Of a stretch of 32,000 nt of DNA, positions 3,503 to 25,045 are shown piece by piece; position 1 is the stretch's first letter, and the number at the start of each line of letters is the position of its first letter. Under the pieces are notes generated by a model, which was given only the letters and a program-made list of their open reading frames with translations, did no database searches and was not told the origin of the DNA. Origin of the DNA: Cereibacter sphaeroides 2.4.1. Its GTDB lineage: Bacteria > Pseudomonadota > Alphaproteobacteria > Rhodobacterales > Rhodobacteraceae. The DNA lies in contig NC_007494.2 in the NCBI RefSeq assembly GCF_000012905.2, positions 480,001 to 512,000 of the forward strand. Direction: 5' to 3'. A program made the translations under genes and the position numbers.

Positions 3503-3625
3503 GTCGGACCTCCCTCGGGACGGAGCTGCGTTGGGCCGGCCTTTCCATCCCGACCCGCCTCCGTCAAGGCGCAGAGGGCCTGTTTTCAGGCACGAAATCG
3601 CCATGAGGGCGAAGTTTCCAGAGAA

Positions 3626-3644
3626 TCCGACAAGAACAGTCGGA
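3626..3644. promoter_or_regulatory. 19-bp dyad TCCGAC-N7-GTCGGA in the divergent promoter between the siderophore ABC operon and the TonB-dependent receptor; candidate iron-regulator operator
   Basis: Read directly from the sequence as tccgacaagaacagtcgga, with perfect 6-bp arms. It lies in the lowest-GC part of the 327-bp divergent intergenic region. One such dyad is not statistically strong on its own. Confidence 0.25.
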
Positions 3645-3829
3645 ATCTACAATACAGCGGCCTCTCCGCTCCGCTAGGGCTGCCGCCGATCGCACCGGCC
3701 TCGTGAGGCCGGAGCGGTCCCTCGCGCCCGTGCCGGGCGCGGCGGCCCCCGGCGGTGCCGGGAGATCAGCCAGCGGATGGGGCAGCCCGTCGGGCCAGCG
3801 CGCAGAGACCCTCAACCAGTGGAACGCCC

Positions 3830-7806: not shown

Positions 7807-8385
7807 ATGACCGACACGGCCGAGCTGCCCGTCAGCCGCTTTCCCGTTCCGCGCCTTTCGGATCTGCCCGACGACATCCGCAGCCGCATCGAGGCCGTCC
7901 AGGAGAAGTCGGGCTTCGTTCCCAACGTCTTCCTCACGCTCGCCCACCGCCCCGACGAGTTCCGCGCCTTCTTCGCCTACCACGATGCGCTGATGGACAG
8001 GCCCGGCGGCCTGAGCAAGGCCGAACGCGAGATGATCGTCGTGGCCACGTCGACCGCGAACCAGTGCCAGTACTGCGTGATCGCCCACGGGGCGATCCTG
8101 CGCATCCGGGCCAAGAACCCGCTCGTGGCCGATCAGGTGGCGATCAACTACCGCAAGGCCGACATCACCCCGCGCCAGAAGGCCATGCTCGATTTCGCCA
8201 TGAAGGTCTCGACCCGGGCGCACGAGGTGGGAGAGACCGATTTCGATGCCCTGAAGCAGCAGGGATTCGAGGAGGAGGATATCTGGGACATCGCCGCGAT
8301 CTCGGCCTTTTTCGGCATGTCGAACCGGCTGGCCAATGTCACCAGCATGCGTCCGAACGCCGAATTCTACGCGATGGGGCGCTGA
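7807..8385 (+). CDS. Peroxidase-related enzyme, carboxymuconolactone decarboxylase/AhpD-like (CMD) family
   Basis: ATG 7807 is preceded by SD GGAGGAG. The sequence [63 protein letters not shown]...[31 protein letters not shown] carries the CxxC(H) motif typical of AhpD/CMD proteins. Only the last 192 codons of ORF 7072..8385 look protein-like. Confidence 0.85.
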
Positions 8386-8605
8386 GGAGGGCCTTGGACC
8401 ACGAGCCGAGGCGGCCCGCCGCACGCTGAGCGCCTGGAGGTGCGGCGGCGGTTGCCGTTCTGTCAGACAGAGATCCGTTTACCGTTCGTTCAAGTTCCGC
8501 ACGCAAGATTGCGGCCGGACCCTGACGCTGCCGGCCGCCGGAGGTGCAGGGGTCCGTTTCTGCCCGCGCACGTCTGCTGCTCAGTTCACTCGTTTGGTTC
8601 GGACC

Positions 8606-10180
8606 ATGATGCTCTCCCTCAAGGCCAAGACGGCCCTCACTTTCGGCCTCGTATTGACGGGGGTTGCAATCACCGTGGCGCTTGCCATCGGCAGTCTCAA
8701 CCAGGTGGCGGGAAATCTCACGCGGTTGACCCGGCTGGAGCTTCTGGCGCTCGAGGCTGCGCATGAGTTCGCCCTGTCGCAAAGCCGCGCCGAGACGCTG
8801 GTGGCCAGATACGGGCTGGCGCTCTCCCGGGGTGGCGAGCTCTCCGGTGTCGACCGTCACTTGCGACGGCTGGAAGAGGATCTGGCGAAAGCGCTCCACA
8901 GCCAGCGGCAGGCCGTGGCAGACCTGCAGGCGCATGTGACGTTGCAGGAAGACGTCGCAAGTATCGCGGTCCTTCAGAGCTACGGCTCGCTGGTGGAAGC
9001 CGCGTCGACGAAGAGCCTCCGCCGAGCGACGGCCGGCGATCCGGCGGGGGCTCAGGCGGCGCTGGCCGACCCGTCCCTCCTCATGGCCCGCGCCGCGGGG
9101 GAGCAGGCGCTTGCCGACATCACCCGCAGGCAGTGGGACACCGTGGGCCGAACCGCCGCCCGGACAGTGGATCTGGCCACGCGCCGAGGATGGATCATGC
9201 TGACCGTCGTCGTCAGCGCCTGCGCCACCGCCGGCACACTCGCGGTCTGGATCGTGCTCTCGATCGGGCGGGGCTTGTCCAGCGCGCTGGCGCTGTCGAG
9301 CCGTCTGGCCGAGGGCGATCTCAGCGCCACCGTCCCCATCACCGGACGGGACGGAATGGCCCACCTCCTGCAGTCGAACAACGAGGTGGTGCTTCAGCTG
9401 CGCACCGTCGTCGAGGCCGTGACCGCCTCGTCTGGCGCCCTCACGGGCCTGAGCGCCCGGGTTGCGGCCACGTCCGAGCAGATGTCGGTGAATGCCATGG
9501 AGCAGATCTCGGCCACGGGCGAGGCCGCTTCCGCGGTCACGGGCATCCAGAGCAGCCTCGAGCAGTCGGTCGAGCGCGCCGCCGCCTGCGAAAGCGTGGC
9601 GGCGCGCGCCGCGCAGGATGCGCGCGCCTCGGAGAAGGTCGTTGGAGAGGCGCTCCGCTCCATGAAGAAGATCGCGGAACATATTCTCGTCATGCAGGAA
9701 ATCGCGCGGCAGACCGATCTTCTCGCCCTGAATGCGGCGGTGGAGGCCGCCCGCGCGGGCGAGCGGGGCCTGGGCTTTGCAGTCGTGGCCAGCGAGGTCA
9801 GAAAGCTCGCCGAGCGCAGCCAGGACGCGGCCAAGGAAGTCTCGACCCTCTCCCACTCGACGTCGCAGGCGGCCGTGGCGGCGGGCGATATCATCGGGCG
9901 CCTCATCCCGGATATCGAACTCACCTCCACGCTCGCGACCGAGATTGCATCCGTGGCACGGGATCTGAGCGGCGAGATCCGCTCGGTGACCGGTTCGATC
10001 GACACGCTCGACACGCTCAGCAAGCAGAATTCCTCCGTATCGGACGAACTCTGGAACGGCTCTGCCGAGCTCTCAGGCCAGGCGGAGATCCTCGCAAACG
10101 CGATCCGCTACTTCGACGCATCGGACAGGAGCGGGCCTTCGGACGAGCCCGAGGAGGGGCTGCAGGCCGCGGCAGCATGA
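8606..10180 (+). CDS. Methyl-accepting chemotaxis protein (two TM helices, periplasmic helical sensor, HAMP, MA signalling domain)
   Basis: Start at ATGATG 8606/8609: [29 protein letters not shown] (TM1). TM2 plus HAMP: [49 protein letters not shown]. Highly conserved MCP hairpin: [40 protein letters not shown]. Confidence 0.9.
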
Positions 10181-11520: not shown

Positions 11521-12288
11521 TCAGTCAATCGCGATCCAGACCGGAGCGTGATCGCTCGCCTTCTCCCAGCCGCGGACATGCCGGTCGACCCCCGCCCCCT
11601 TCAGACGGGTCAGAAGGGACGGGCTCAGCAGCAGATGGTCGAGCCGCAGACCGGCGTCCCGCTCCCACGCATTTCGGAGATAGTCCCAGAACGTATAGAT
11701 CCGATCCTCGGGATACAGATGCCGGATGCTATCTGTCCAACCCTGCGCGAGAAGCCGGGCAAAGGCTGCCCGCACCTCAGGGCGGCACAGCGCGTCCTCG
11801 CGCCAGCGCTCGGGACGATGGACGTCGAGATCGGTCGGCATCACGTTGAAGTCTCCGGCGAGAACGACCGGCACGTCGTGGCGCAGAACCTCCTCGGCAT
11901 GATTGAGAAGATGGTCGAACCACGCGAGCTTGGCGGCAAACTTCGGGCCCGGGGCCGGATTGCCGTTCGGCAGATAGAGGCAGCCCACGAGAACGCCCTC
12001 CACCGCCGCCTCGATATAGCGGCTTTCACCGTCCTGCACGCCCGGCAGATCCTGCCGCGTCTGCACCGGCTCGGCGCCGCGCGCGAGGATCGCCACGCCG
12101 TTCCAGCTCTTCTGCCCGTGCCACACCGCTCCGTAACCCGCAGCTTCCAGCGCGGCGGCCGGAAAGCGCGCGGAGGCCGCCTTCAACTCCTGCAGGCAGA
12201 CGACGTCGGGGCGCGCCTCCTCGAGCCAGCGCAGCAGCACCGGAAGCCGGCCGTTCACCCCGTTCACGTTGAAGGTCGCGATCCTCAT
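11521..12288 (-). CDS. xthA: Exodeoxyribonuclease III (AP endonuclease)
   Basis: Full-length ExoIII pattern: MRIATFNVNGVNGRLPVLLRWLEEARPDVVCLQELK...GQKSWNGVAILAR...LAGDFNVMPTDLDV...YTFWDY...LRLDHLLLSP...SDHAPVWIAID. Confidence 0.95.
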   Translation of the reverse strand: MRIATFNVNGVNGRLPVLLRWLEEARPDVVCLQELKAASARFPAAALEAAGYGAVWHGQKSWNGVAILARGAEPVQTRQDLPGVQDGESRYIEAAVEGVLVGCLYLPNGNPAPGPKFAAKLAWFDHLLNHAEEVLRHDVPVVLAGDFNVMPTDLDVHRPERWREDALCRPEVRAAFARLLAQGWTDSIRHLYPEDRIYTFWDYLRNAWERDAGLRLDHLLLSPSLLTRLKGAGVDRHVRGWEKASDHAPVWIAID

Positions 12289-13443: not shown

Positions 13444-14022
13444 CTAGCCGCCAAAGCCGCGCGAGGCGCCGGTGCTGCCGAAGCCGCCGCGCGAGGCGGG
13501 GCTCGCGACAGACATCGGCGGCTTGCCGATGGTGGAGGGCGGCCGGGCAAAGGTGCTGGTGCCGAGGCGCGCCGAGCCCGTGTTGCTGGAATAGGTGCTC
13601 GTGCGGGCGGCATTTGTGAACTTGCCGTCCGCGGTGCGGTAGAGGGGCTGCGCGGAAGCCACGCCCCGGCCGCTGAGCATGCTGCCGATCAGATAGCCGG
13701 TGAGCAGCGGCATGAAGATGCCGCCCATCCCGCTGCCGCCCGTCACCTCGCTCTCGCTGCCGCAGCCGCCCGCGCCATGTTCCGCCTCGCAGGCGGCGAC
13801 GCTGTCGTAGCGGGGCGCGGATTCGACATGGAGCTGCTGCGCCTCGGCAAAGGATTTGTCGCATTCCTCGACGCTGAAGAGCCCGCCGTTGCTCGCCGCG
13901 GCGCGGCAGCTCTCGACATCGGGGAAGGCCTGGGCCTCGACCTCCTCCTCGCGGCAGCCGGCCAGCGCGAAGGAGGCGGCGCCGAGGATGACGAGGGCAA
14001 CGGTGCGCGAGCGGCGTCTCAT
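13444..14022 (-). CDS. DUF1190 (UPF0441) lipoprotein, YgiB-like
   Basis: MRRRSRTVALVILGAASFALAGC carries a lipobox. Downstream: ...ESCRAAA...APRYDSVAACEAEHGAGGC...GGIFMPLLTGYLIGSMLSG...QPLYRTADGKFTNA...RGGFGSTGASRGFGG. This mirrors E. coli YgiB as I recall it. ATGA overlap with the upstream ygiC-like gene. Confidence 0.8.
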   Translation of the reverse strand: MRRRSRTVALVILGAASFALAGCREEEVEAQAFPDVESCRAAASNGGLFSVEECDKSFAEAQQLHVESAPRYDSVAACEAEHGAGGCGSESEVTGGSGMGGIFMPLLTGYLIGSMLSGRGVASAQPLYRTADGKFTNAARTSTYSSNTGSARLGTSTFARPPSTIGKPPMSVASPASRGGFGSTGASRGFGG

Positions 14023-15221
14023 GCTTTCTCCTCCCGGACGAAATGCGGCTTGAACCGCGACAGATCCTGCGTGATGCGCGAGCGATCCTCGCGCAGCCCC
14101 ATGCCCACGCAGGTCTCGCCCACGATCCAGGCGCCGACGACGGGGCGGAAGCCGCCGAAGACCGGCAGGGGATGATAGGCCTGAACGATCCGCGGATGCC
14201 CGGCATAATCGTCGCGGGGCGAGGCCTCGGTGACCTGCCCCTCCTCGAGGATCGAAATCGAGGCGCCCTCGCGCGAGAAGAGCGGCTTGAGGACATGGCC
14301 CCGCCGCAGCGTCTCTGCCGCGCGGTCGACCGCCGGTCCGCCCGCCGCGACCTCGGCCTCGAAGAAGGCCGGCAGCAGGTTCGGATGGCCTTCGAACATC
14401 TGCCAGAGCACCGGCAGCAGGCCCTTGTTCGACAGGACCGCCTTCCAGGCGGGCTCCAGCATCAGGCAGTTCGAGCTGCGGATGTGGCGCGCATAATCGT
14501 CGCGCAGCAGGTCTTCCCAGGGGTAGAGCTTGAACAGCGTCCCGATCACCCGGTTGTCGGCATCGAGGAACTGGCCCTCCCGACTGAGCCCGATTTTCTC
14601 GAGATCGGAATAATGCGCGCCGAGGCCGGCGGCGCGGGCGGCCCAGCCCATGCATTCGACCGTGGCATAATCCTCGGGATTGCCGCCCACGGCGGTGAAA
14701 TGCAGATCGGTGTCGGGCGGGAAGAGGCTGCGGAAGCGCTCGACCAGGGCTTCGTGGATGCCGTTGAACTGGTCCGATCGCGCGGGGAGCACGCCCGCCT
14801 CGATCTGGTCCTGCAGCCAGCTCCACTGGAACGAGGCGCTTTCATAGAGCGAGGTCGGCGTGTCGGCGTTGTATTCGAGGAGCTTCGACGGCCCCTGCCC
14901 GTCATGGGCCAGATCGAACCGGCCATAGATCTCGGGATCGCCGCGCTGCCAGCTTTCCGCGATCAGGTCGCGATGCTCCGCCGGAATGGCCAGCCGGTCG
15001 AGCAGCTCCTCGCTGCCGATGATGTGGCCCGCCGCCTCGCGGCACATCGCGTGGAGCGCCGTCGCGGGATCCTCGATCATCTCCTCGACCTCGGCCAGGC
15101 CGAAGCCGTAGGCCGACGTCTCATCCCAATAGGGCTCGCCGTGCATGTCGGCGAAGGTGAAGCCGAGTTCCTCGGCGCGGTCGCGCCAGCCGGGGCGCTC
15201 GGGCAGGTCGATCCTCTCCAT
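14019..15221 (-). CDS. Glutathionylspermidine-synthase-like ATP-grasp protein (YgiC/YjfC family)
   Basis: 400-aa ORF: MERIDLPERPGWRDRAEELGFTFADMHGEPYWDETSAYGF...LLEYNADTPTSLYESASFQWSWL...GWAARAAG...LMLEPAWKAVLSNKGLLPVLWQMFEGHPNLLPAFF...VLKPLFSREGASI. This is characteristic of the GSP-synthase pre-ATP-grasp/ATP-grasp family. Confidence 0.9.
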   Translation of the reverse strand: MERIDLPERPGWRDRAEELGFTFADMHGEPYWDETSAYGFGLAEVEEMIEDPATALHAMCREAAGHIIGSEELLDRLAIPAEHRDLIAESWQRGDPEIYGRFDLAHDGQGPSKLLEYNADTPTSLYESASFQWSWLQDQIEAGVLPARSDQFNGIHEALVERFRSLFPPDTDLHFTAVGGNPEDYATVECMGWAARAAGLGAHYSDLEKIGLSREGQFLDADNRVIGTLFKLYPWEDLLRDDYARHIRSSNCLMLEPAWKAVLSNKGLLPVLWQMFEGHPNLLPAFFEAEVAAGGPAVDRAAETLRRGHVLKPLFSREGASISILEEGQVTEASPRDDYAGHPRIVQAYHPLPVFGGFRPVVGAWIVGETCVGMGLREDRSRITQDLSRFKPHFVREEKA

Positions 15222-15590
15222 GACCCCTCACCTATGCGTTCGCGCGCCCCGGCGCCAGTGGCTGCGGTGGCATTCCCGGCCGCGACGAGAGGTGCCGGAT
15301 CGGCCGCCCCGCGTGGAGGGAGGCCGGCGGCATGGCGCGCATCGCCCGAGGCGCGGTAGAGGGAATCGGTTTGCACGCTTTCAAGTTGTGTTACCATCGC
15401 CTCATTCGAGCAGATGGCCGCCTTATTCATCCGGCCAAAGACCCCTCTTGCGAACGCTACGCTGACACGAAGCCAATGGGCGGCCCCTGCCGCCCCATCG
15501 CATGGTCATTTTCATTTGGAGTATTGCCGATGCTGTTCAAGCTGGGCCACGGCCAGAACATTCGTATCTATCCGCGCAGCAGAAGCCTCC

Positions 15591-15597
15591 GGGGGGG
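15591..15597 (+). repeat. G7 homopolymer separating an SD-preceded 24-codon ORF (15530..15604) from the peroxidase reading frame
   Basis: Read directly as cctccgggggggcgggtga. Loss of one G would fuse the MLFKLGHGQNIRIYPRSRSLRGG frame to the peroxidase frame. Confidence 0.9.
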
Positions 15598-15674
15598 CGG
15601 GTGACACCGCCACCGACAGCGTCCCCATCGACACGGTCTGCGCGGAAGCCTCGGACGAGGCGGACCCGCACGGC

Positions 15675-17399
15675 ATGAGGCCCGCCTATCCGCTTCCCAA
15701 CCCCGACCCGCAACCCTCTCCTGGGCTCGAGCCGCGCGAGGTATTCCGCTTCTACTTCCGCAATGCCCCCGAGGTGGCGGCCGATCCCGAGATCGAGGGC
15801 AGGATCCTCGCGCTGGCCGACGCCATGGCCGAGGCGAGCCTGACCCAGGCCGATCCCGAAGGAGAGTCCAGCATTCCGGCGGTCTTCACCTACTTCGGCC
15901 AGTTCATCGACCACGACATCACGGCCAATACCGACCGCGACGAGCCCGGCTTCGACATCGACCGGGCCGGCATCGACCCGCAGCCGCGCGATCTGGTGGA
16001 AAAGGAGAAGCTGAACCTGCGCAACGGCCGGCTGAACCTCGACAGCCTCTACGGGGACGGCCCCGGCCAGTCGCCCGCGGCGGCGAAGATGGAAGCGGCG
16101 ATGCGCGACCCCGCCGATCCCGCCAAGATGCGCCTCGGGCCGGTGCAGCCGGTCAGCAACGGATCGCCGGGCTTCATCCGGCCGGATCTGCCCACGGACA
16201 ACCTGGCCGACATCCCCCGGATCGGCGCCGCCATCGACGACGGCAGCCTGACACTGGAGGAGGCCCGCGAACTGATCGGCGAGGCCGACGACGCCAAGCT
16301 GCGCCTCTCCGCGCTGATCGGCGACGGGCGCAACGACGAGAACCTGATCGTGGCCCAGCTGCACCACAGCTTCCTGCGGCTGCACAATGCGCTGGTGGAC
16401 AAGCTCCGGGCCGACGGCGCGGCCGCGGGCGACGACGCGCTCTTCGCTCTGGCGCGGCAGCACACGACCTGGATCTACCAGTGGATGGTGGTGAACCTCT
16501 TCCTGAAGGCGGTCTGCGACCCCTCCGTCGTGGAGGATGTGCTCGAGAAGCGCGCCCCGCTCTACCGGGGCTTCTTCGAGGCGCACAAGGCCTCGGTGCC
16601 CGAGGGAGCCCTGCCGATGCCGCTCGAGTTCAGCGTGGCGGCCTTCCGCTACGGCCATTCGATGGTGCGGGGCGACTACGACTACAACCGCAGCTTCGGC
16701 GTGGCGGCCGACGGCACGCCGCAGACCCGCGCCAGCTTCGAGCAGCTCTTCGCCTTCACCGGCGGGGGCAACATGTCGGGCTTCGGGCTGACCTCGCTGC
16801 CCGACAACTGGATCATCGAGTGGGATCGGTTCATCCGCGCCGATGGCCCGCCCGGACGGACGGCCCGCAAGATCGACAGCCGGCTCGCGCTGCCCTTGAA
16901 GGAGATGCGCAACCCCGCCCCGGGCGTCAGCGGGATCATGCGCCATCTGGCGGCGCGCAACCTGCGCCGGGGCTATGTGTTCAATCTTCCCGACGCGCAG
17001 GCCATCCTTTCCGAACTGGCCTATCAGGGCACGCGGATCGAACCGCTCACGGCGGATGAGATCGCCTCGGGCGCGACCGGTGCCGCGATCCGCGACGGCG
17101 GCTTCGACAGCTCGACGCCTCTGTGGTTCTACGTCCTGAAAGAGGCGGAGGTGAGGGCCGAGGGCAACCATCTCGGCCCGCTCGGCAGCCGTCTGGTGGC
17201 CGAGACGCTGATCGGCCTCCTCGTGACCGATCCGTCGAGCTACCTCCAGCAGGGAGCCTTCGGCAGCTGGACACCGGACGAGGCGGCGCAGCCGAAGGGC
17301 GAGCCGATCACGAGCTTTGCCGCCATGCTCGTGGCCTGCGGCCTGCTCGCGCCCGTGCCTGCGGCGCCGGCGGCGCCCCAGCCGGCCGCCACGTTCTGA
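15675..17399 (+). CDS. Animal-type heme peroxidase (peroxidase-cyclooxygenase superfamily, MPO/LPO-like active site)
   Basis: Distal motif FGQFIDHD (His codon 15912..15914). GDGRNDEN carries the catalytic Arg (16338..16340) and Glu (16347..16349). Proximal motif AAFRYGHS (His codon 16656..16658). The start is uncertain: ATG 15675 is used here, the ORF is open from 15414, and a frameshift-fused start at 15530 is possible. No signal peptide is visible with any of these starts. Confidence 0.88.
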   Translation: MRPAYPLPNPDPQPSPGLEPREVFRFYFRNAPEVAADPEIEGRILALADAMAEASLTQADPEGESSIPAVFTYFGQFIDHDITANTDRDEPGFDIDRAGIDPQPRDLVEKEKLNLRNGRLNLDSLYGDGPGQSPAAAKMEAAMRDPADPAKMRLGPVQPVSNGSPGFIRPDLPTDNLADIPRIGAAIDDGSLTLEEARELIGEADDAKLRLSALIGDGRNDENLIVAQLHHSFLRLHNALVDKLRADGAAAGDDALFALARQHTTWIYQWMVVNLFLKAVCDPSVVEDVLEKRAPLYRGFFEAHKASVPEGALPMPLEFSVAAFRYGHSMVRGDYDYNRSFGVAADGTPQTRASFEQLFAFTGGGNMSGFGLTSLPDNWIIEWDRFIRADGPPGRTARKIDSRLALPLKEMRNPAPGVSGIMRHLAARNLRRGYVFNLPDAQAILSELAYQGTRIEPLTADEIASGATGAAIRDGGFDSSTPLWFYVLKEAEVRAEGNHLGPLGSRLVAETLIGLLVTDPSSYLQQGAFGSWTPDEAAQPKGEPITSFAAMLVACGLLAPVPAAPAAPQPAATF

Positions 17400-17449: not shown

Positions 17450-19408
17450 ATGGCCCCCGTCCCAGCGTCCCCCGGCGCCGCTCCGATCCGGCGCGACCCC
17501 TCCGACCTGCGCGATCAGGTCTATCTGCCCTCGCTGAGGCCGCTCGCGCCCCGGACGGAGCTGCCGTCCTGCCTTTCAGGCGGCACCCTCCTGCCCCGCG
17601 ATCAGCAGGAGGCCGAGAGCTGCGCCGGTCAGGCCCTCGCGGCGCTGATCGATCTGCAGCACCAGAGCGCGGGCGCGGCCACGGCGCGCGTGTCCGCGCG
17701 GATGCTCTACCGGATGGCGCTGGTGCAGGACGGAAGCGCGGGCGGCGGGGTGGCCTCGCTCCGCTCCGTGCTGAAGGGCTTCTACCATTACGGCGTCTGC
17801 CCCGAGAGCCTCTGGCCCGACGGGAGCGGTTCGGATGCGCTGACCGCCGAACGGGCGAAGGCCGCGCGCGGCGTGACGCTCGGCGCCTACTATCGCGTGC
17901 TGCCCGGCCTGAACGACTGGCATGCGGCGCTGACCGATGTCGGCGCGCTCCTGGTTTCGGCCGAGATCCACGAGGGCTGGGACTGCCCCTTCGATCCGCA
18001 AAAGCCCCGCGACCGGCAGGGCCTCATAGTGCCCGTGCGCAGCGGCGGCACCGGCCACGCCTTCCTTGTGGTGGGCTATACCGAGGCGGGCTTTCTGGTC
18101 CTGAACTCCTGGGGAGCTGCCTGGGGCGGTTACGACGGGCGGCCCGGGATCGCGCTCTGGCCCTACGAGGACTGGGCCGAGACGGTCATGGACGCCTGGG
18201 TGCTGAGGCTGGGGGTGCCCGCGCCTGCCGCCTTCGCGCAGGCGCGCGGGCTCCATGGCCTCGGCTTCGACACAGGCCCCCTCGGCGCGTCGCAGGCCGC
18301 CTGCCACCGGCTGCTGGGCCATTTCGCCCATCTCGACGACGGCCGGCATGTCGACAGCGGCAGCTACGCCTCGTCCCGCGCCTCGGTGGAGGAGACGGCC
18401 CGCTGCCTCGAGGCGCGGCCGCGCCCCGTGCTCCTGTCGGTGGCAGGCTCGCTCTTCGGCCTTCAGGCCGGCATCGCGCACGAGATCCGGCGCCGCCCGA
18501 CCGTCGAGGCCGTCGGTCTCTATCCCTACACAGTCTTCTGGTGCAACGACGCCTTCGACAGCACGAGCCTCGTGCTCGATCACCTCTTCGAGAAGGCGGT
18601 CCAGAAGGTCGGCCCCTTCGACCCGACCCTCGATGACACGATCGAGCGCGATACCGCCCCGATCGGCCGCGCCTTCTGGCGGGACGTCAAGGCCGCGGCA
18701 TGGCGCGCGGGCAGCCACCGCCGCGACGGCCGCGAGGGCGATGCCGCCCATCTCTTCGACCGGCTGGCCGCGACGGGCGCGCCGCTGCATCTCCTGACCG
18801 ACGGCGCCGGGGCGATCCTCCTCGGCCGGTATCTGCGCTCGCTGGAAGAGGGCGCTCTTCCGCCCGATGAGGCCGCCCGCAGGCAGAGGCTGCGCGAGAG
18901 GTTCTTCGCCGCCACGGCCTCGCTCACCCTCGTCACGCCGCCCCTCACGCTCGCGGCCTTCGACGAGGCCTTCGGGCCGCTTATCGACCATCTGCCCGAG
19001 GGCCGCGCGACGCTCTGGGTGCCGTCGCGGGGCCTCGATGCGAAGCTGCATGTCGGCGCGTACGCGCGCTCGATCCTGCATCTGATCTGCCACGGGTTCG
19101 AACGCGGCGAGGAGGATGGCACGGACGCGCCCACGCGGAGCTTCGTGGGCATGCCGCAGCATGTGACGGGGCTGCCCGGCCGGCTGACGCCGCGGCTTGC
19201 CAAGCTGGCCGTCTGCCGGATCGCGCAGCCCGACGCGTCCCGGCCCCGCTTCACGCAGGCCGACGTCAGCCTGAGTGCCGACTGCCACCGGCGGACACTC
19301 GACAGGATCCGGGCCATTGAGGCCCAGCGACAGGGAGGAACGGATGACGGAGAAAATCACGCTCGAGCAGCTGCAGGAGATGGCGGCCGATCCCGGAACG
19401 CGTCCTGA
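17450..19408 (+). CDS. Papain-like cysteine protease (peptidase C1 fold, residues ~15-255) fused to a ~390-aa C-terminal domain of unknown function
   Basis: From ATG 17450. Q(52)..ESC(58)AGQA supplies the oxyanion Gln plus catalytic Cys (codon 17621..17623). GH(203)AFLVVGY has the His codon at 18056..18058. LN(219)SWGAAWG has the Asn codon at 18104..18106. This is the complete papain triad context. There is no signal peptide, and I do not recognise the C-terminal 390 aa. Confidence 0.85.
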   Translation: MAPVPASPGAAPIRRDPSDLRDQVYLPSLRPLAPRTELPSCLSGGTLLPRDQQEAESCAGQALAALIDLQHQSAGAATARVSARMLYRMALVQDGSAGGGVASLRSVLKGFYHYGVCPESLWPDGSGSDALTAERAKAARGVTLGAYYRVLPGLNDWHAALTDVGALLVSAEIHEGWDCPFDPQKPRDRQGLIVPVRSGGTGHAFLVVGYTEAGFLVLNSWGAAWGGYDGRPGIALWPYEDWAETVMDAWVLRLGVPAPAAFAQARGLHGLGFDTGPLGASQAACHRLLGHFAHLDDGRHVDSGSYASSRASVEETARCLEARPRPVLLSVAGSLFGLQAGIAHEIRRRPTVEAVGLYPYTVFWCNDAFDSTSLVLDHLFEKAVQKVGPFDPTLDDTIERDTAPIGRAFWRDVKAAAWRAGSHRRDGREGDAAHLFDRLAATGAPLHLLTDGAGAILLGRYLRSLEEGALPPDEAARRQRLRERFFAATASLTLVTPPLTLAAFDEAFGPLIDHLPEGRATLWVPSRGLDAKLHVGAYARSILHLICHGFERGEEDGTDAPTRSFVGMPQHVTGLPGRLTPRLAKLAVCRIAQPDASRPRFTQADVSLSADCHRRTLDRIRAIEAQRQGGTDDGENHARAAAGDGGRSRNAS

Positions 19409-21209
19409 GGATCTCGCCCCCTATTTCCGCACGCGAGATGCGGCCTCGCCGTTCGATCCGCAGATCGAGATCGACGAGACGCGGGTCATGGTGCCCGACA
19501 CGGCCGAGGCGGCCAGCCGCTCGGCGCTCGTGCTCAACAGCGCCAACTGGATCGAGCGGATGAAGCGGCAGACGCGCTTTCACCGCCGCCTGTCGGAAGG
19601 CAACTACACCGGCCCGATCATCGTCGAGGAGGGCGACAGCTGGTTCCAGTATCCGCTCCTGCTGCGCGACGTGATCGACGTGCTGATGGACCGCTATGCC
19701 ATCTTCTCGCTGAGCGCCGGCGGCGACACGCTGGAAAACATGGCGACAGGGGCGCAGTATCGGAAGGCGCTGGAAGAGACGCAGGCCAGCATCCTGCTCC
19801 TGTCAGGGGGCGGCAACGACCTTGTGGCCGACGGGCAGCTGGCCGACCATCTGCGCCCCTTCGATCCGAACCTCCGCCCCGCCGACTATCTGCTCGGCAG
19901 CTTCGACCAGCTGATCGCCCGGTCGATGGCGCTCTACGACCGCATCTTCGCCGATGTGGCGCGCCGCTTTCCGAAGGTCGATGTGATCTGCCACGGTTAC
20001 GACTACACCCTGCCCCGCATCCGCGGAAAGTGGCTGGGCCAGCCCATGCAGGCGCGCGGCATTGCGGATCCGGCCCTGCAGGCCTCCATCGCCGTGGTCA
20101 TGGTCGACCGGCTGAATGCCGAGCTGGCCCGCCTCGCCCGCCGGCATCCGCGGGTGCATCACCTCGACCTGCGCGGCCGCGTGGAGCGCGATCACTGGAA
20201 CGACGAGCTCCATCCCGACGACAGCGGCTATGCCGCGGTCGCCGCCGTCTTTGCCGAACGGATCGACGCTCTGACGCGCCGCCCGCGCGGGGTCCCGCGC
20301 GGCGCGGCGGCAGGCGGCCCGGCGCCGGAGGCCGCGCCCGCCCTCGTCCAGCCGCGCCCGATGGCCCTCTCGCTTCATGTGGGGGTGAACAGGGTCGATC
20401 AGGCGCATTACCGCAACTTCGTGCAGGATCTCGAATTCTGCGTGAACGATGCCGAGGCGATGCGGGATCTGGCGGTCCAGCGCGGCTACGAGACCCGCTT
20501 GCTGACGGACGCTCAGGCCACGCGCGAGGCGCTGCGCGGGGCGATGACCGATGCGGCGCAGCAACTGGAACCGGGCGGGATCTTCCTGATGAGCTATGCC
20601 GGGCACGGTGCCCAGATCGGCGACTTCAACGGCGACGAGGGCGACGGCCCGGACCGGGACCGGCTGGACGAGACGCTCTGCCTGCACGACGCCATGCTCG
20701 TCGATGACGAGCTCTACCAGCTGTGGGCCGCCTTCCGCGAAGGCGTGCGGGTGGTGGCGGTCTTCGATTCCTGCCATTCGGGCAGCATCCTCCGGGCGAG
20801 CGCCAATCGCCGCACCGACCGTGCCGGCCGCACGGGCCGCGTGCGCACCATCTCGCTTGGGGCGAGCGTCCAGATCTACCGCGCGAACCGCGCCTTCTAC
20901 GACGGGTTGCCCTCCTCGATCCTGCCCTCCGACAGCGCGGTCCTGACCAAGGAGCTCACCTATCCCGTCAGCGCCTCCATCCTCCAGATCTCGGCCTGCC
21001 AGTCGAACCAGACCGCCGAGGAGGCCTTCGGCAACGGGCTCTTCACCGAGCGGCTGATGGCCACTCTGGCCGAGGGCAGCGGCCGGCTGGGCTACAGCGG
21101 CTTCACCGACCGGATTGCGGCGCGGATGCCGCCCGAGCAGACGCCGAAGTTCTGGCGCGTGGGGCGGCCCGATCCGGTCTTCGAGGCGCAGACCGTCTTC
21201 TCCGTCTGA
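19344..21209 (+). CDS. Fusion protein: N-terminal SGNH/GDSL hydrolase domain + C-terminal caspase-like (peptidase C14) domain
   Basis: ATG 19344 with strong SD GGGAGGAA.
- SGNH blocks: VEEGDSWF (Ser99, codon 19638..19640), LLSGGGNDL, and DELHPDD (Asp287/His290).
- Caspase dyad: LMSYAGHGAQ (His421, codon 20604..20606) and VAVFDSCHSGS (Cys477, codon 20772..20774), plus LSLHVGVNRVD...CVNDAEAM at the domain start.
The gene overlaps the upstream gene by 65 nt. Confidence 0.85.
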   Translation: MTEKITLEQLQEMAADPGTRPEDLAPYFRTRDAASPFDPQIEIDETRVMVPDTAEAASRSALVLNSANWIERMKRQTRFHRRLSEGNYTGPIIVEEGDSWFQYPLLLRDVIDVLMDRYAIFSLSAGGDTLENMATGAQYRKALEETQASILLLSGGGNDLVADGQLADHLRPFDPNLRPADYLLGSFDQLIARSMALYDRIFADVARRFPKVDVICHGYDYTLPRIRGKWLGQPMQARGIADPALQASIAVVMVDRLNAELARLARRHPRVHHLDLRGRVERDHWNDELHPDDSGYAAVAAVFAERIDALTRRPRGVPRGAAAGGPAPEAAPALVQPRPMALSLHVGVNRVDQAHYRNFVQDLEFCVNDAEAMRDLAVQRGYETRLLTDAQATREALRGAMTDAAQQLEPGGIFLMSYAGHGAQIGDFNGDEGDGPDRDRLDETLCLHDAMLVDDELYQLWAAFREGVRVVAVFDSCHSGSILRASANRRTDRAGRTGRVRTISLGASVQIYRANRAFYDGLPSSILPSDSAVLTKELTYPVSASILQISACQSNQTAEEAFGNGLFTERLMATLAEGSGRLGYSGFTDRIAARMPPEQTPKFWRVGRPDPVFEAQTVFSV

Positions 21210-21296
21210 AGCCGCCCCTCCGTCCCCCCGCGGCGCAGATCGCCATTCGCCCCGCGCGCGGCGCGTGCTAGCTCCGGGGCAACGGAAGGGGCGGTG

Positions 21297-21959
21297 ATGC
21301 GGATTCTGATCGTCGAGGATGATCCGGTGCTGGCGGACGGGCTGCAGGTGGGCCTCCGGCTGGCGGGCTTCGTGCCCGAAGCGGTGGGCACGCTGGAGGA
21401 TGCGCGCGCGGCGCTGGATGCCGGCCGGTTCGAGGCGATGGTGCTCGACCTGATGCTGCCCGACGGCTCGGGGCTCGAGCTTCTCGCCGAGCTTCGGGCC
21501 GCGCGCGAGGCGGTGCCGGTGCTGGTGCTGACGGCGCGCGACCGGCTCGACGACCGGGTGCGGGGGCTGGATCTCGGCGCGGACGACTATCTTGGCAAGC
21601 CCTTCGAGCTAGAGGAGCTGGCGGCCCGCCTGCGCGCCCTCGGCCGCCGCCCCGCGGCGCTGGCCACCACCCGGCCCGAATGGAACGGCGTGGCCCTCGA
21701 CCTCGCGGCGATGGAGGCCTCGCGCGATGGCCGGCCCGTGGCGCTCTCGCCGCGGGAGTTCGCGGTCCTCCGCGCCCTCATGGCCCACCCCCGCGCGATC
21801 CTGAGCAAGGCCCAGATCGAGGAGCAGCTCTACGGCTGGCAGGAGGAGATCGAGAGCAACGCGATCGAGGTCCATGTCCACAAGCTGCGTGCCAAGCTCG
21901 GGCACGGCTTCATCGAGACGGTGCGCGGCGTGGGCTATCGGCTGGCGGAGGCCTCGTGA
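21297..21959 (+). CDS. OmpR/PhoB-family response regulator (QseB/BasR-like)
   Basis: MRILIVEDDPVLADGL...MVLDLMLPDGSGLELL...VLVLTARD...GADDYLGKPF is the receiver domain. The winged-helix C-terminus is ...LSPREFAVLRALM...IEVHVHKLRAKLG...IETVRGVGYRL. ATG 21297 (GTG at 21294 also possible) follows GGAAGGGG. Confidence 0.92.
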   Translation: MRILIVEDDPVLADGLQVGLRLAGFVPEAVGTLEDARAALDAGRFEAMVLDLMLPDGSGLELLAELRAAREAVPVLVLTARDRLDDRVRGLDLGADDYLGKPFELEELAARLRALGRRPAALATTRPEWNGVALDLAAMEASRDGRPVALSPREFAVLRALMAHPRAILSKAQIEEQLYGWQEEIESNAIEVHVHKLRAKLGHGFIETVRGVGYRLAEAS

Positions 21960-23308
21960 GTTCGATCCAGCGCCGCCTGTTTCTCGTCCTTCTCGCCGCC
22001 ACCGGAGCGATCTGGCTCTCGGCCGCGCTCTGGGTCCATTCCTCGACGCGGACCGAGCTGAACCGGATGCTGGACAACCGGCTGGCCGAGGCCGCGCGCA
22101 TGGTGGGCAGCCTCGTCGACGGCGACGGGCTGCCGCTCGACACGGCGATGCAGATGGCGGCCCCCGCCCTGCCCGGCGACACGGCCCACGGCTACGCCCA
22201 CCAGCTCTCCTGTCAGGTCTGGGGACTGGACGGCACGCGGATCGCCGCCTCGTCGCAGGCCCCGGCCGAGGCGCTCTCGACCGTCCCGCAGGGCTTCAGC
22301 GAGCACGCGGCCGAGGGCATCGTCTGGCGAGTCTACACCCATTTGGACGAAGCGCGCGGCATCCGCGTGATGGTGGGCGACAGCCTGCGCATGCGCGAGC
22401 GGCTGCTGCACGACATGGTGCTGGGGCTCATGTGGCCTGCGCTCGTGGTGCTGCCGCTTCTCGCCGGCGCGATCTGGCTCAGCCTGCGCAGCGGCCTTGC
22501 GCCGCTCCGGCGCATCACCCGCGAACTCGCGCATCGCGGGGCCGACGATCTTTCGCCCCTCCATGCGCCCGCGCCGGGCGAGGTGGCGCCGGTGGTCGAG
22601 GCGCTGAACGGGCTCTTCCGCCGGGTGCAGGCGGCGCGCCAGCATGAGCAGGATTTCACGGCCTATGCCGCGCACGAGTTGAAGACCCCGCTCGCGGGCC
22701 TGAAGATGCAGGCCGAGGTGGCGAGGCGGGCGCCGGATGCCGCAACGCGCGACCATGCGCTGGCCCAGATCCGGCGCGCGGTCGACCGGTCGGACCGGCT
22801 GGTGCACCAGCTCCTCGACATGGCGGCGGTGGATCAGGGCGCGGCCGAGAGCCCGCCCCGCCCGCTCGGCCGGATCGGCGCCGAGGTGCTGGAGCTGACC
22901 CTGCCCGCCGCCCGGGCGCGCGACGTGCGGCTGACGCTCGACTGCGCGCCGGCCCTCGCCGACCGGCCGCAGCGCGATCCTGCCCTTCTGGTGGTGGCCC
23001 TGCGCAACCTCGTCGAGAATGCGGTCCATGCCAGCGCCGAGGGCGGGCGGGTGGAGCTGGCCTTCCGGCCCGACGGGGCGGGCTGGCGGGCCGAGATCCG
23101 CGACGAGGGCCCCGGCATTCCTCAGGACATCCGGGGACGGATCACCGAACGCTTCTACCGCGGCCCCACCGGCGGCGAGGGCAGCGGCCTCGGACTGGCC
23201 ATCGTCGAGGCGGCGGCCCGGCGGCTCGGGGCGCAGTTCGCGCTCCGCCCGCAGAGCCCGCGCGGCGAGGTGGCGACCCTGCTCTTTCCCGCTTCCGATC
23301 TCGCCTGA
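21956..23308 (+). CDS. Sensor histidine kinase (QseC/BasS-like, two TM helices, HisKA + HATPase_c)
   Basis: GTG 21956 forms a GTGA overlap with the regulator stop. TM1 is RRLFLVLLAATGAIWLSAALWV and TM2 is LGLMWPALVVLPLLAGAIWLSL. H-box FTAYAAHELKTPLAGL, N-box LRNLVENAVHAS, G-boxes RDEGPGIP and GSGLGLAIV. Confidence 0.9.
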   Translation: MSSIQRRLFLVLLAATGAIWLSAALWVHSSTRTELNRMLDNRLAEAARMVGSLVDGDGLPLDTAMQMAAPALPGDTAHGYAHQLSCQVWGLDGTRIAASSQAPAEALSTVPQGFSEHAAEGIVWRVYTHLDEARGIRVMVGDSLRMRERLLHDMVLGLMWPALVVLPLLAGAIWLSLRSGLAPLRRITRELAHRGADDLSPLHAPAPGEVAPVVEALNGLFRRVQAARQHEQDFTAYAAHELKTPLAGLKMQAEVARRAPDAATRDHALAQIRRAVDRSDRLVHQLLDMAAVDQGAAESPPRPLGRIGAEVLELTLPAARARDVRLTLDCAPALADRPQRDPALLVVALRNLVENAVHASAEGGRVELAFRPDGAGWRAEIRDEGPGIPQDIRGRITERFYRGPTGGEGSGLGLAIVEAAARRLGAQFALRPQSPRGEVATLLFPASDLA

Positions 23309-23485
23309 GCCGAGAGTGCGCCCTGCTGCCGCACCGCTTCGGCCGTTTCCCGGTCGGCCGGACAGGCCCTCCATCCGAAAGATCCTGTAAATCCGTCCGA
23401 TGGATGATGCCCGCCACCGGCGCCAAGGTCTATGGGTTCCGCAGTGGCTTCCGGCGCAGCAACCATGCGCGAAAGGGATGGATGT

Positions 23486-25045
23486 ATGAGGGTGACGATC
23501 AGAACCAAACTGGCCGCGGCATTCACCGTGGTTTTCGTCATGGCGGGGTTGGCGGTGGCGCTCGCCCTGGTCCAACTGGGGCGTGTCGACCAGCGCATGA
23601 CCGAGGTCATCGACGAGCATGTGCAGGAGGTGGTGCTCGCCCAGCGGCTCAGCATCGGGCAGTATCGCGTGATGGCCAGCATCCGCGCGCATCTGCTCGA
23701 CCGGGACTCGGACTCCGCGATCCAGATCGAGACGAGCGTGCAGGAGGGCCGGATGATCCAGCGCCGCGCCCTGCGTGCCCTGCGCGACAGACCGCAGGAT
23801 GCGGCGACAGCCGATCTCCTGATCCGCTACAACGATCTCAGGAAGCAGATCCAGCGGGTGAACAACCGCGCCATGATCCTGTCGCTCGGGGGCAACCCGC
23901 AGGGCGCGGCCGCCTTCCTCCGCGAGGCGGGCGCGGCCGGCCTCGAACGGTCGCTCGAGGGCCTGTCCGAAGATCTGGTAACCCACAAGCTCGAGCTTCT
24001 CGAGCGTGAGAAGGCCGAGGCGAATGCCGAAGGGCGCTCCGTGCTGGCGCTCGTGATGCTGATCGGGGCCCTGTCCGCAGTCGTGGGCTCGGCAGCGGCG
24101 ATCTGGATCACGCTCTCGATCGGCCGCGGGCTTCGCCGGGCCCTCGCACTCACGCGGCGGGTCGCGGCCGGCGACCTCACGGAGGGCGAAGAGGTCAAGG
24201 GACGCGACGAGATCGCCGATCTGCTCGGTGCCAGCAACCGGATGCTCGAGAAGCTGCGCGAGGTGATGGACGAAGTGTCGGGCACCGCCCGCGATGTGGC
24301 GGCGGCGAGCGGCCGGATGGCCACGGCCGCCGGGCAGCTCAAGTCCGGCACGGAAGAGCAGGCCTCGGCCACAGTCGAGGCCTCGGCCGCGGTCGAGCAG
24401 ATGGTGGGCAACATCACCCAGTCCGAGAGCAATGCCGGCGTCACCGCGCAGATCGCGGGCTCCTCGGCGGACGATGCGCGGCGCTGCGGCGTGGCGGTGG
24501 CCGAGGCCGTGCGGTCGATGCAGGAGATCGCCGAGCGGATCGGCGTGGTCCGCGAGATCGCCCGGCAGACCGACCTTCTGGCGCTGAATGCGGCCGTCGA
24601 GGCCGCGCGGGCGGGTGAGCAGGGACGCGGCTTTGCCGTCGTCGCGGCCGAGGTGCGGCGGCTCGCCGAACGCAGCGCCGAGGCCGCGGCCGAGATCTCG
24701 ACCCTCTCCGCCGGGACGGCGCGGGCCGCGGCCGGGGCCGGCGAGATGATCGACCGGCTGGTGCCCGAGATCGAGCGCACGTCGGAGCTCGTCACCGACA
24801 TCTCGGTCGCCTCGCGCGAGCTGTCCGAGGGCGCGCGGCAGGTCTCGCTCGCCATCGATGCGCTCGACCGGGTGACGCAGCAGACCGATGCGGCCTCGAA
24901 GCTGCTCGACGAGGATGCGGAGGATCTGGCGGCGCGGGCCCGGCGGCTTCTGACCAGCGCGACCTACTTCCGCACCGGACCCGCGACCGAAGGCGGTGAG
25001 GCAGAAGAGGCCGCGGCCCCCGAGGACTGGCGCGCCGTGGCCTGA
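23486..25045 (+). CDS. Methyl-accepting chemotaxis protein (paralogue of 8606..10180)
   Basis: From ATG 23486: [31 protein letters not shown] (TM1). TM2/HAMP: [54 protein letters not shown] hairpin: [40 protein letters not shown]. An alternative ATG lies at 23465. Confidence 0.9.

Follow-up and report, generated by a model that had tools for sequence, protein, structure and literature searches.

A conserved SGNH hydrolase–metacaspase fusion coupled to a papain-family protease in Cereibacter sphaeroides

The stretch of DNA analysed here, hereafter the window, comprises 32,000 nt of Cereibacter sphaeroides 2.4.1 (NC_007494.2, positions 480,001–512,000; ∼70% GC). It encodes a 621-aa protein in which an SGNH/GDSL hydrolase domain is tethered to a metacaspase-type protease domain, and the gene for this fusion protein overlaps the 3' end of a gene for a papain-family (C1) cysteine protease (Table 1). 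The fusion protein shares 98% identity with P0001 of Cereibacter sphaeroides, which is annotated as ‘caspase family protein', a label that conceals half of the protein. The GC content at the third codon positions of the open reading frame (ORF), 0.89, is usual for genuine genes of the window, and a longer version of the ORF that would start with the GTG at 19275 is unnecessary because the homologues, with the shared start M..KITLEEL, begin at the position of the ATG at 19344, which is served by a strong Shine–Dalgarno sequence.

Domain architecture of the fusion protein

Residue invariance was assessed in an alignment of 24 diverse homologues (42–60% overall identity), motif counts were made over 120 homologues, and structures were compared with Foldseek, using an AlphaFold2 (AF2) model of the fusion protein with a mean predicted local distance difference test score (pLDDT) of 82.

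The SGNH domain contains all four catalytic blocks of the superfamily. Block I, GDSWF with the catalytic Ser99, is invariant in 24 of 24 aligned sequences and is found as GDS[WY]F in 120 of the 120 homologues; block II (G127-D128, with G127 assigned by alignment position only) and block III (G157-N158-D159) are invariant as well, and so is block V (D287-E-L-H290), which takes the form D[EG]LHP in 119 of 120 homologues. The Pfam score of the protein itself is below the cut-off (PF00657 Lipase_GDSL, residues 101–301, E = 0.0089, 16.6 bits compared with 23.6), whereas orthologues exceed the thresholds of both relevant families (45.8–48.2 compared with 32.9 for PF13472, and 30.8 compared with 23.6 for PF00657). 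In the AF2 model, this region adopts the three-layer alpha/beta/alpha SGNH fold and matches the GDSL esterases 8IK1 (target template modelling (TM) score 0.72, E = 1.4e-7) and 7E16 (target TM 0.70), with Foldseek E-values for these matches ranging from 1e-7 to 3e-6. Given the invariant catalytic blocks, the above-threshold Pfam scores of the orthologues and the superposition of the model, the assignment of the domain, a predicted esterase/lipase, to the SGNH superfamily is secure despite the sub-threshold score.

The SGNH domain is preceded by a module of about 90 residues (hereafter N90), modelled by AF2 with pLDDT of ∼67–88 and containing seven invariant residues (L10, P39, V48, N68, R75, G86 and G90). 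A profile search of 1.84 billion representative proteins with N90 yielded 314 clusters, and, in the complete proteins among the 150 clusters listed, N90 is followed by SGNH. The module is not confined to protein N-termini and sits internally in many architectures.

The C-terminal part of the protein is a metacaspase domain. Its match to Peptidase_C14 (PF00656, residues 353–604, E = 5.9e-19) scores 69.1 bits against a cut-off of 21.4, and residues 339–621 align end to end with GSU0716 (PDB 3BIJ; E = 1e-53; Foldseek TM 0.87), which we take to be a structural-genomics protein without an assigned function. The alignment covers residues 2–277 of the 285-aa GSU0716 chain, so that the p10-like C-terminal region is present. 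The catalytic dyad, H421 (YAGHG) and C477 (DSCHSG), is invariant, with D[STC]CH[SA]G found in 119 of 120 homologues, and also invariant are D475, two residues before the catalytic Cys, and the acidic residues D427, D431, E432, D442 and E443. The acidic segment GDFNGDEGDGPDRDRLDET and the DSCHSG motif align with the corresponding parts of Yca1 (GHGGQTEDLDGDEEDGMD ... DSCHSG, with the acidic segment GDEEDGMDD). The domain thus resembles GSU0716, Yca1 and TbMCA2 in its His/Cys dyad, the DxCHSG motif, the acidic cluster, a candidate Ca2+ site, and the p10-like part, with yeast, plant and trypanosome metacaspases aligning more distantly than GSU0716.

Metacaspases are Arg/Lys-specific, with the Asp two residues ahead of the catalytic Cys lining an acidic S1 pocket, their acidic cluster binds the activating Ca2+, and they are usually regulated by processing. 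Mapping what is known of TbMCA2 and Yca1 onto the present domain, we regard D475 as a candidate S1 residue and the acidic cluster as a putative Ca2+ site; by family knowledge, the protease would be expected to be specific for Arg/Lys and is probably Ca2+-dependent. Neither the QACxG pentapeptide nor the basic S1 pocket of caspases proper (C14A) was found in the domain, in which the active site reads DSCHSG, and caspases proper are only distantly similar to it (TM ∼0.6–0.7, 10–12% identity). With 23.5 bits against a cut-off of 140, the protein is not a member of the NCBIfam family ‘caspase_w_EACC1' either. The domain is ‘caspase-like' only in the broad clan CD sense; it is of the metacaspase type and not an Asp-specific caspase. 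Proteins of the GSU0716 type have been classified as bacterial type I metacaspases that consist of p20 and p10 without a prodomain (Choi & Berges, PMC3734836). In the fusion protein, the position of a prodomain is taken by the N90-SGNH enzyme, so that, unlike GSU0716-type and type I metacaspases, with a short prodomain or none, it carries 310 aa of N90-SGNH followed by a basic tether.

The two enzymatic domains are separated by a linker, RRPRGVPRGAAAGGPAPEAAPALVQPRP (residues 313–340), that coincides with residues 314–336, the sole long stretch between the domains with pLDDT <50. Across 111 homologues, the linker is 9–86 aa long (median 34) and is enriched in K/R (21%, compared with 10.6% in the rest of the protein) and depleted in D/E (4.4%, compared with 13.4% elsewhere). 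All 111 linkers contain at least one K/R, and a [KR][GSA] dipeptide is present in 109 of them. The K/R frequency peaks just past the last SGNH helix and three residues ahead of the caspase domain, and these peaks are diffuse. This composition would fit cleavage by an Arg/Lys-specific protease, which is suggestive rather than decisive.

The fusion was originally noticed in a sequence-only reading of the window, which described both domains, their catalytic residues and the Pro/Ala/Gly-rich linker correctly to the residue level. The SGNH blocks I, III and V that it listed (Ser99, GGGND and D287-x-x-H290) fall within the invariant blocks, the linker is the disordered stretch of the AF2 model, and the catalytic residues of both domains, for which misalignment had been raised as a possible objection, are invariant in the alignment of the homologues. 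Profile support, another point on which the reading could have failed, is strong for PF00656, and, for the SGNH domain, is provided by the orthologues, not by the protein itself. The caspase fold and the positions of H421 and C477 hold, but the class has to be revised from caspase to metacaspase, as indicated by DxCHSG and the acidic cluster. The first ∼90 residues, which had been said to match nothing recognisable, are a conserved module of this SGNH subfamily. Overall, the protein is confirmed, at the level of sequence and model, as a catalytically intact-looking esterase/lipase-type enzyme tethered to a metacaspase-type protease.

Table 1. Features of the window, with the SGNH–metacaspase gene and its parts listed first
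Feature	Position (nt)	Strand	Details
SGNH–metacaspase ORF	19344–21209	+	621 aa + stop; order N90 – SGNH – linker – metacaspase; from the ORF list
Shine–Dalgarno sequence GGGAGGA	19333–19339	+	4 nt before ATG 19344; read from the sequence
N90 module	19344–19613	+	Residues 1–90; helical, long basic helix 56–84; precedes this SGNH subfamily
SGNH/GDSL hydrolase domain	19614–20279	+	Residues 91–312; Ser99 (nt 19638), Gly127, Asn158, Asp287/His290
Linker	20280–20363	+	Residues 313–340; disordered, Pro/Ala/Gly/Arg-rich; candidate protease cleavage region
GSU0716-type metacaspase domain (p20 + p10-like)	20364–21206	+	His421 (nt 20604), Asp475, Cys477 (nt 20772); acidic cluster D427/D431/E432/D442/E443; flexible loops 479–495 and 525–539
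Partner C1 protease gene	17450–19408	+	652 aa; xylellain-like papain-family C1 protease + C-terminal ‘C1ct'
Haem-peroxidase gene	15414–17399	+	Pfam An_peroxidase, E = 3e-18; true start probably downstream of 15414
OmpR-type response regulator	21294–21959	+	Response_reg + Trans_reg_C; 85 nt downstream of the SGNH–metacaspase ORF
Histidine kinase	∼21956–23308	+	H-box HELKTPL; adjoins the response regulator
EEP family gene	11521–12288	-	7 kb upstream
Glutathionylspermidine-synthase-family gene	14019–15221	-	Assigned through annotated plasmid genes of similar DNA sequence; lies divergently to the peroxidase gene
Iron/siderophore cluster	1353–5977
FecCD permease	1353–2528	-	Iron/siderophore cluster
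Periplasmic binding protein	2525–3604	-	Iron/siderophore cluster
TonB-dependent receptor	3755–5977	+	Iron/siderophore cluster
Methyl-accepting chemotaxis gene	8336–10180	+	Flanks the region
Methyl-accepting chemotaxis gene	23432–25045	+	Flanks the region

The C1 partner and the recurrence of the N90-SGNH unit

The fusion gene is translationally coupled to the gene of the C1 protease, its start being overlapped by the stop of the partner over 65 nt. In 64 of the 81 loci, the gene that directly precedes the fusion gene has the same orientation and encodes such a partner of ∼650–750 aa, and the pairing is conserved across Alphaproteobacteria. The best structural match of the N-terminal domain of the partner is xylellain, a C1A peptidase of Xylella fastidiosa (3OIS; TM 0.77, 23% identity), with which it shares the Cys/His/Asn triad (Cys58, His203 and Asn219, invariant in the alignment); unlike xylellain, the partner bears an additional ∼370-aa alpha/beta domain, C1ct, without detectable relatives. 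This domain is conserved and displays the motifs HLDDG, WCND, GRAFWRD and DGAGA. A profile search of the PDB yielded no relatives of C1ct at E ≤ 10, Pfam returned only one non-significant match to DUF900, and the Foldseek list for the partner was saturated by matches of the papain domain.

In three loci (L065, L071 and L073), the partner and the SGNH–metacaspase are fused into one ORF of 1,400–1,800 aa, and the same fusion occurs in four independent database proteins (P0258, P0273, P0283 and P0344); these single-chain cases represent a Rosetta-stone fusion. Rather than being self-contained, the protein belongs to a conserved operon, and sometimes to one polypeptide, that also includes another cysteine protease. 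Where N90-SGNH is encoded by a gene of its own, without the caspase, the same C1-C1ct gene follows immediately downstream; the SGNH unit and C1-C1ct thus form the deeper couple, to which the metacaspase is an add-on. In genomes such as those of Thauera, Lamprocystis and Zoogloea, the SGNH–metacaspase gene is solitary among unrelated neighbours. The upstream genes in the Thauera, Zoogloea, Limnobacter and Rubrivivax loci (encoding a hybrid kinase, an M13 peptidase, a tannase-like protein and a CHAT protein) are related neither to each other nor to the C1 partner.

At the level of 90% clusters, there are >400 full-length relatives, most of which carry precomputed matches to both PF00656 and PF13472. 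A scan of one genome per species detected at least 548 loci encoding a relative in Alpha-, Beta- and Gammaproteobacteria, Desulfobacterota and Myxococcota, with the caveat that the scan patterns were built from the SGNH motifs, so that the caspase may be missing from part of the loci detected. Copies are present on rhizobial megaplasmids and chromids; in phage genomes, no SGNH–metacaspase fusion was found. The fusion, then, is not the unusual protein that it first seemed to be and occurs in hundreds of species. It is common without being functionally annotated beyond the label ‘caspase family protein', and literature searches on orthocaspases or metacaspases with GDSL/SGNH and on Peptidase_C14 with Lipase_GDSL_2 found no characterisation, in agreement with the initial impression that the architecture is not represented among characterised proteins.

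The fusion is often extended. A Peptidase_M15_3 peptidoglycan peptidase domain is added in 34 of the 81 loci, and ∼30 loci contain, after M15_3, a further domain of ∼280 aa, denoted Cext, resulting in versions of ∼1,130 aa (for example, L022:9956-13384 and ∼30 other roseobacter loci). Cext is also encoded as a separate gene beside solo copies (L059:3869-4630 and L049:4133-5125). Where the long SGNH-C14-M15 gene ends, a conserved ORF of ∼350 aa is translationally coupled to it, the overlap lying between -3 and +10 nt (L021:11984-13036, L027:13444-14514 and eight further Aliiroseovarius-type loci); this ORF could be a third operon member, for instance, a regulator or an immunity-like protein. 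Searches of Pfam and the PDB yielded no match for either Cext or the 350-aa downstream ORF of Aliiroseovarius. In a metagenome-assembled genome of Desulfobacterales (L041:11947-12804), the SGNH–metacaspase gene is followed by another caspase-family gene, which stands by itself and encodes 285 aa (PF00656, E = 9e-32).

Beyond the fusion with C14, with or without M15, the N90-SGNH unit occurs alone (∼340 aa), preceding or following Trypsin_2 (in some forms joined by an endonuclease/exonuclease/phosphatase, EEP, domain), with clostripain (C11), with a GH46-like domain and an S8 subtilisin, with a myroilysin-type metalloprotease, and together with DUF2272, Amidase_2, Trypsin_2 and EEP. Altogether, it is paired or fused with at least six unrelated protease families (C14, C1, C11, Trypsin_2, S8 and myroilysin-like). 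Annotated plasmids contain fusions of the unit with an amidase, DUF882, S8 or trypsin-like domain; on them, the unit also adjoins Trypsin-EEP and Trypsin-PLD proteins. A metagenomic relative (L093) lies in a row with an Amidase_3+M15_3 protein and a Trypsin_2+Endonuclease_NS protein, and genes for GH19-like, GH46, PG_binding_1 and Amidase_2 proteins are neighbours in several clades. Judging from this range of architectures, the constant feature is the SGNH unit plus some protease, often accompanied by hydrolases directed at the wall or the membrane.

Genomic surroundings and location signals

Neither a hydrophobic core resembling that of a signal peptide nor a transmembrane segment was found in any of the 120 homologues, and the fusion protein is predicted to be soluble. 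A Pfam census of 106 flanking ORFs revealed no secretion-system genes, no phage genes and no recurrent small immunity genes, and no genes of type VI secretion systems (T6SS), extracellular contractile injection systems (eCIS), type I secretion systems (T1SS) or defence systems were found in the window.

In the window, iron-uptake, chemotaxis and regulatory genes surround the cassette, and the C1 partner is preceded by a gene of the animal haem-peroxidase family whose product has no signal peptide and contains one 19-aa hydrophobic window (Kyte–Doolittle score 1.86). A peroxidase is co-located with the cassette in only 6 of ∼81 loci, all in the clade of Cereibacter, Actibacterium, Loktanella and Palleronia, and was rejected as a core component; it is possibly an accessory operon member, one idea being oxylipin-type chemistry on lipase products. 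The two-component system downstream was likewise rejected as a regulator, a homologue of the response regulator being found nearby in three loci only. EEP domains are fused or adjacent to N90-SGNH elsewhere (P0276, P0291, L088 and L094), and the EEP gene of the window may be a coincidence. The window has no near-identical plasmid match, and the fusion is carried by no phage, which speaks against a plasmid or phage origin. A faint precomputed Pfam mark of a bacterial gasdermin in S. meliloti was not reproduced at E ≤ 0.1.

Several other loci deserve mention for their neighbours. In Rhizobium ruizarguesonis (L004:2731-4518), CBASS-type accessory genes (Cap15_CD_rec, Prok-JAB and ThiF) lie ∼5–7 kb upstream of the cassette, and the C1 partner is reduced to a remnant of ∼180 aa (9245–9790); a weak NACHT match (E = 0.019) in L086 is another isolated hint of defence. 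In R. leguminosarum bv. viciae 248 (L088:8165-8875), the gene just upstream is annotated as ‘YEATS-associated helix-containing protein', and EEP and PLD-like genes follow downstream. In L095 (1–5836), three consecutive eCIS_core (PF13699) proteins, one of them with Endonuclea_NS_2, are encoded directly upstream of an N90-SGNH-Trypsin-EEP protein (P0276), and a Tn3 transposase gene lies beyond it; no other locus hints at a connection with contractile injection systems.

Possible modes of action and related systems

The interpretation to which we lean, tentatively, is that the fusion protein is a cytoplasmic, zymogen-like multi-hydrolase that would be cut at the basic tether or in N90, freeing an envelope-attacking esterase for regulated self-lysis. 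The protein would stay latent until its basic tether (or tethers), and perhaps N90 as well, is cleaved by a protease. Two candidates for this role are the fused metacaspase, which would be Arg/Lys-specific and probably Ca2+-gated, and the C1-C1ct partner, which would then be an upstream initiator or sensor. The cut would free or unmask the SGNH esterase and, in the longer relatives, also the peptidoglycan peptidase; the freed enzymes would then attack membrane lipids or cell-wall esters from within, and the outcome may be regulated self-lysis or dismantling of the cell, either similar to abortive infection or triggered by damage. As the gene has neither an export signal nor associated secretion machinery, the default site of action would be the producer cell. 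Regulation of one domain by the other via linker cleavage is plausible, given that the linkers are rich in K/R and poor in D/E, that proteases of this type are, by family knowledge, Arg/Lys-specific, and that the SGNH unit is recurrently coupled to unrelated proteases. A more far-reaching version, which we regard as doubtful, is that N90-SGNH constitutes an unrecognised class of protease-activated latent death effector, with C1-C1ct as the cognate sensor-protease and the metacaspase and, in many species, M15 as co-executioners released from a ‘polyprotein' by cleavage of its basic tethers, in a cascade from initiator to executioner that would be directed against membrane, wall and proteome and might be triggered by infection or by Ca2+ influx following envelope damage.

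The combination of N90-SGNH with proteases matches the recently demonstrated logic of latent effectors that are activated by a linked protease. In antiviral defence modules, such effectors are activated by a linked trypsin-like, caspase-like or S8 protease (PMC12799240, PMC12642450); in one case, a lipase-like alpha/beta-hydrolase effector is cleaved twice by a caspase-like protease (PMC12642450; PMC12799240), and zymogen modules that consist of a pro-nuclease and a trypsin-like or caspase protease have been described as well (Tuck et al.). The present family is similar to these in pairing a hydrolytic effector with interchangeable proteases of the trypsin, caspase and S8 classes, either in cis or via the adjacent gene, and in the proposed logic of a latent death effector. 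It differs in the SGNH fold of the effector, in the location of protease and effector on one chain, in the lack of a recognised infection sensor or defence system, and in the additional C1, C11 and metalloprotease classes and peptidoglycan hydrolases. The other relevant system is ‘System 3' of Kaur, Burroughs, Iyer & Aravind (2020), which combines multiple peptidases with a NucA endonuclease and is mostly alphaproteobacterial; for such multi-peptidase systems with peptidoglycan-attacking effectors, proteolytic cascades have been proposed (PMC7159879). Shared with System 3 are the alphaproteobacterial bias, the several peptidase types per operon or polypeptide, the accessory effectors that attack peptidoglycan, and, in L093, the adjacent Trypsin_2+Endonuclease_NS protein. 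However, the window and most loci lack the core of NucA and trypsin, which was found only beside one distant relative (L093); SGNH, C14 and C1-C1ct are outside the described system; and neither EAD1 nor STAND was detected here. Neither the 2025 preprint (PMC12642450) nor Kaur et al. 2020 (PMC7159879) mentions SGNH/GDSL.

Several observations weigh against regulated self-lysis by a protease-activated esterase. The linkers of the homologues share no fixed cleavage motif, and high-GC genomes commonly encode A/P/G/R-rich linkers in any case. The SGNH–metacaspase gene of beta- and gammaproteobacteria and of Desulfobacterota stands alone, without the C1 partner, so that a cascade of the two proteins is not obligatory. 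It is not obvious how cytoplasmic M15, GH19 and GH46 enzymes would reach peptidoglycan without a prior breach of the membrane. The 106 flanking ORFs are mostly housekeeping or metabolic, so that association with defence islands is not demonstrated; PADLOC gave only a generic caspase match, and nothing resembling a recognised sensor, such as STAND, Avs, CRISPR or Hachiman, is attached. There is no known cleavage, activity, toxicity or phage phenotype for any member of the family, and the position of P0276 beside eCIS_core proteins in L095 points to delivery into other cells.

This last observation fits a less likely but serious rival scenario, in which the protein is an exported or injected enzyme cocktail similar to polymorphic toxins and is delivered by a contractile injection system, in vesicles or by another non-classical route; the proteases would be releasing or processing peptidases activated by the high external Ca2+, and SGNH, M15, amidase, GH46 and EEP would be the payloads. 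Degradative domains are indeed shuffled combinatorially around a constant unit, peptidoglycan hydrolases make most sense from outside or in the periplasm, copies reside on rhizobial megaplasmids, and a Ca2+-dependent protease would, from what is known of the family, stay inactive in the cytoplasm and become active once outside it. Autoprocessing multi-effector toxins offer a comparison, namely, the clan CD cysteine protease domain (C80) of MARTX and TcdA-B and the ‘releasing peptidases' of polymorphic toxins. As in MARTX and TcdA-B, a clan CD protease is embedded in a multi-enzyme chain with flexible linkers, and cleavage would release the enzymes; in contrast to those toxins, there are no secretion or translocation domains, no cysteine protease domain of the InsP6 type, no repeats and no immunity gene, and the protease belongs to C14, not C80. 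A similar fusion, Lipase_GDSL + Amidase_2 + metacaspase of Chitinophaga pinensis, was termed a ‘destructive weapon' in the 2012 survey of prokaryotic metacaspases (Asplund-Samuelsson et al., PMC3501461). Like the proteins described here, it combines lipase-type, peptidoglycan-hydrolase-type and metacaspase domains in one chain, but it is a single, unrelated protein from Bacteroidetes, and N90, the C1 partner, the recurrence and the conserved family were not described there. Export, in turn, is hard to reconcile with the lack of signal peptides and transmembrane segments in all 120 homologues; N90 is internal in many architectures, so that it is no simple N-terminal trafficking tag; the flanking ORFs and the window contain no T6SS, eCIS, T1SS or conserved small immunity gene; and the eCIS context, in which P0276 is encoded directly downstream of the three eCIS_core proteins and beside the Tn3 transposase, is limited to one locus.

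Clearly less probable is a bifunctional enzyme with a degradative or housekeeping role, its esterase and protease simply working side by side, for example in envelope turnover and recycling or in nutrient scavenging, with no proteolytic switch and with the fusion and the operon merely co-localising the activities. Such a role would be compatible with the mostly metabolic or housekeeping flanking genes, the solitary gene in several lineages, the window lacking defence or secretion context, and the conservation of both active sites, as in working enzymes. Nevertheless, the patchy, accessory distribution, the copies on plasmids and chromids and the varying insertion sites are not what a housekeeping enzyme would show, metacaspases are normally regulated by processing, as known for the family, and the independent coupling of the SGNH unit to six protease families, together with EEP and PLD neighbours of the nuclease or phospholipase type, resembles an effector system rather than a pathway. 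A non-catalytic, SGNH-like prodomain or sensor of the metacaspase, or an artefact of assembly or annotation, is very improbable. The sub-threshold Pfam score of the protein and the N-terminal prodomains that type I metacaspases are known to carry could be taken to indicate a prodomain, but the four catalytic blocks are invariant at only ∼42–60% overall identity, and there are stand-alone versions of the SGNH unit as well; an artefact is refuted by the conservation of the fusion in hundreds of independent genomes.

The fusion itself is already present in the databases; of greater interest are the findings of the present analysis, namely, the conserved C1 partner, the natural fusions and N90-SGNH as a recurrent, protease-coupled module. 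Prokaryotic metacaspases are abundant, and, to our knowledge, almost none has a known substrate or role. The present family supplies a built-in candidate substrate, namely, the tether of the metacaspase itself and the esterase attached to it, along with a conserved second protease and natural fusions that join the parts. If the protein is delivered to other cells, this would be a new modular toxin family. If the zymogen-like interpretation is correct, SGNH lipases/esterases, and possibly peptidoglycan hydrolases, would join the short list of latent effectors that are unleashed by proteolysis, and a protease cascade encoded in one operon or one polypeptide would be available in common, genetically testable model organisms (Cereibacter sphaeroides, Rhizobium and Sinorhizobium).

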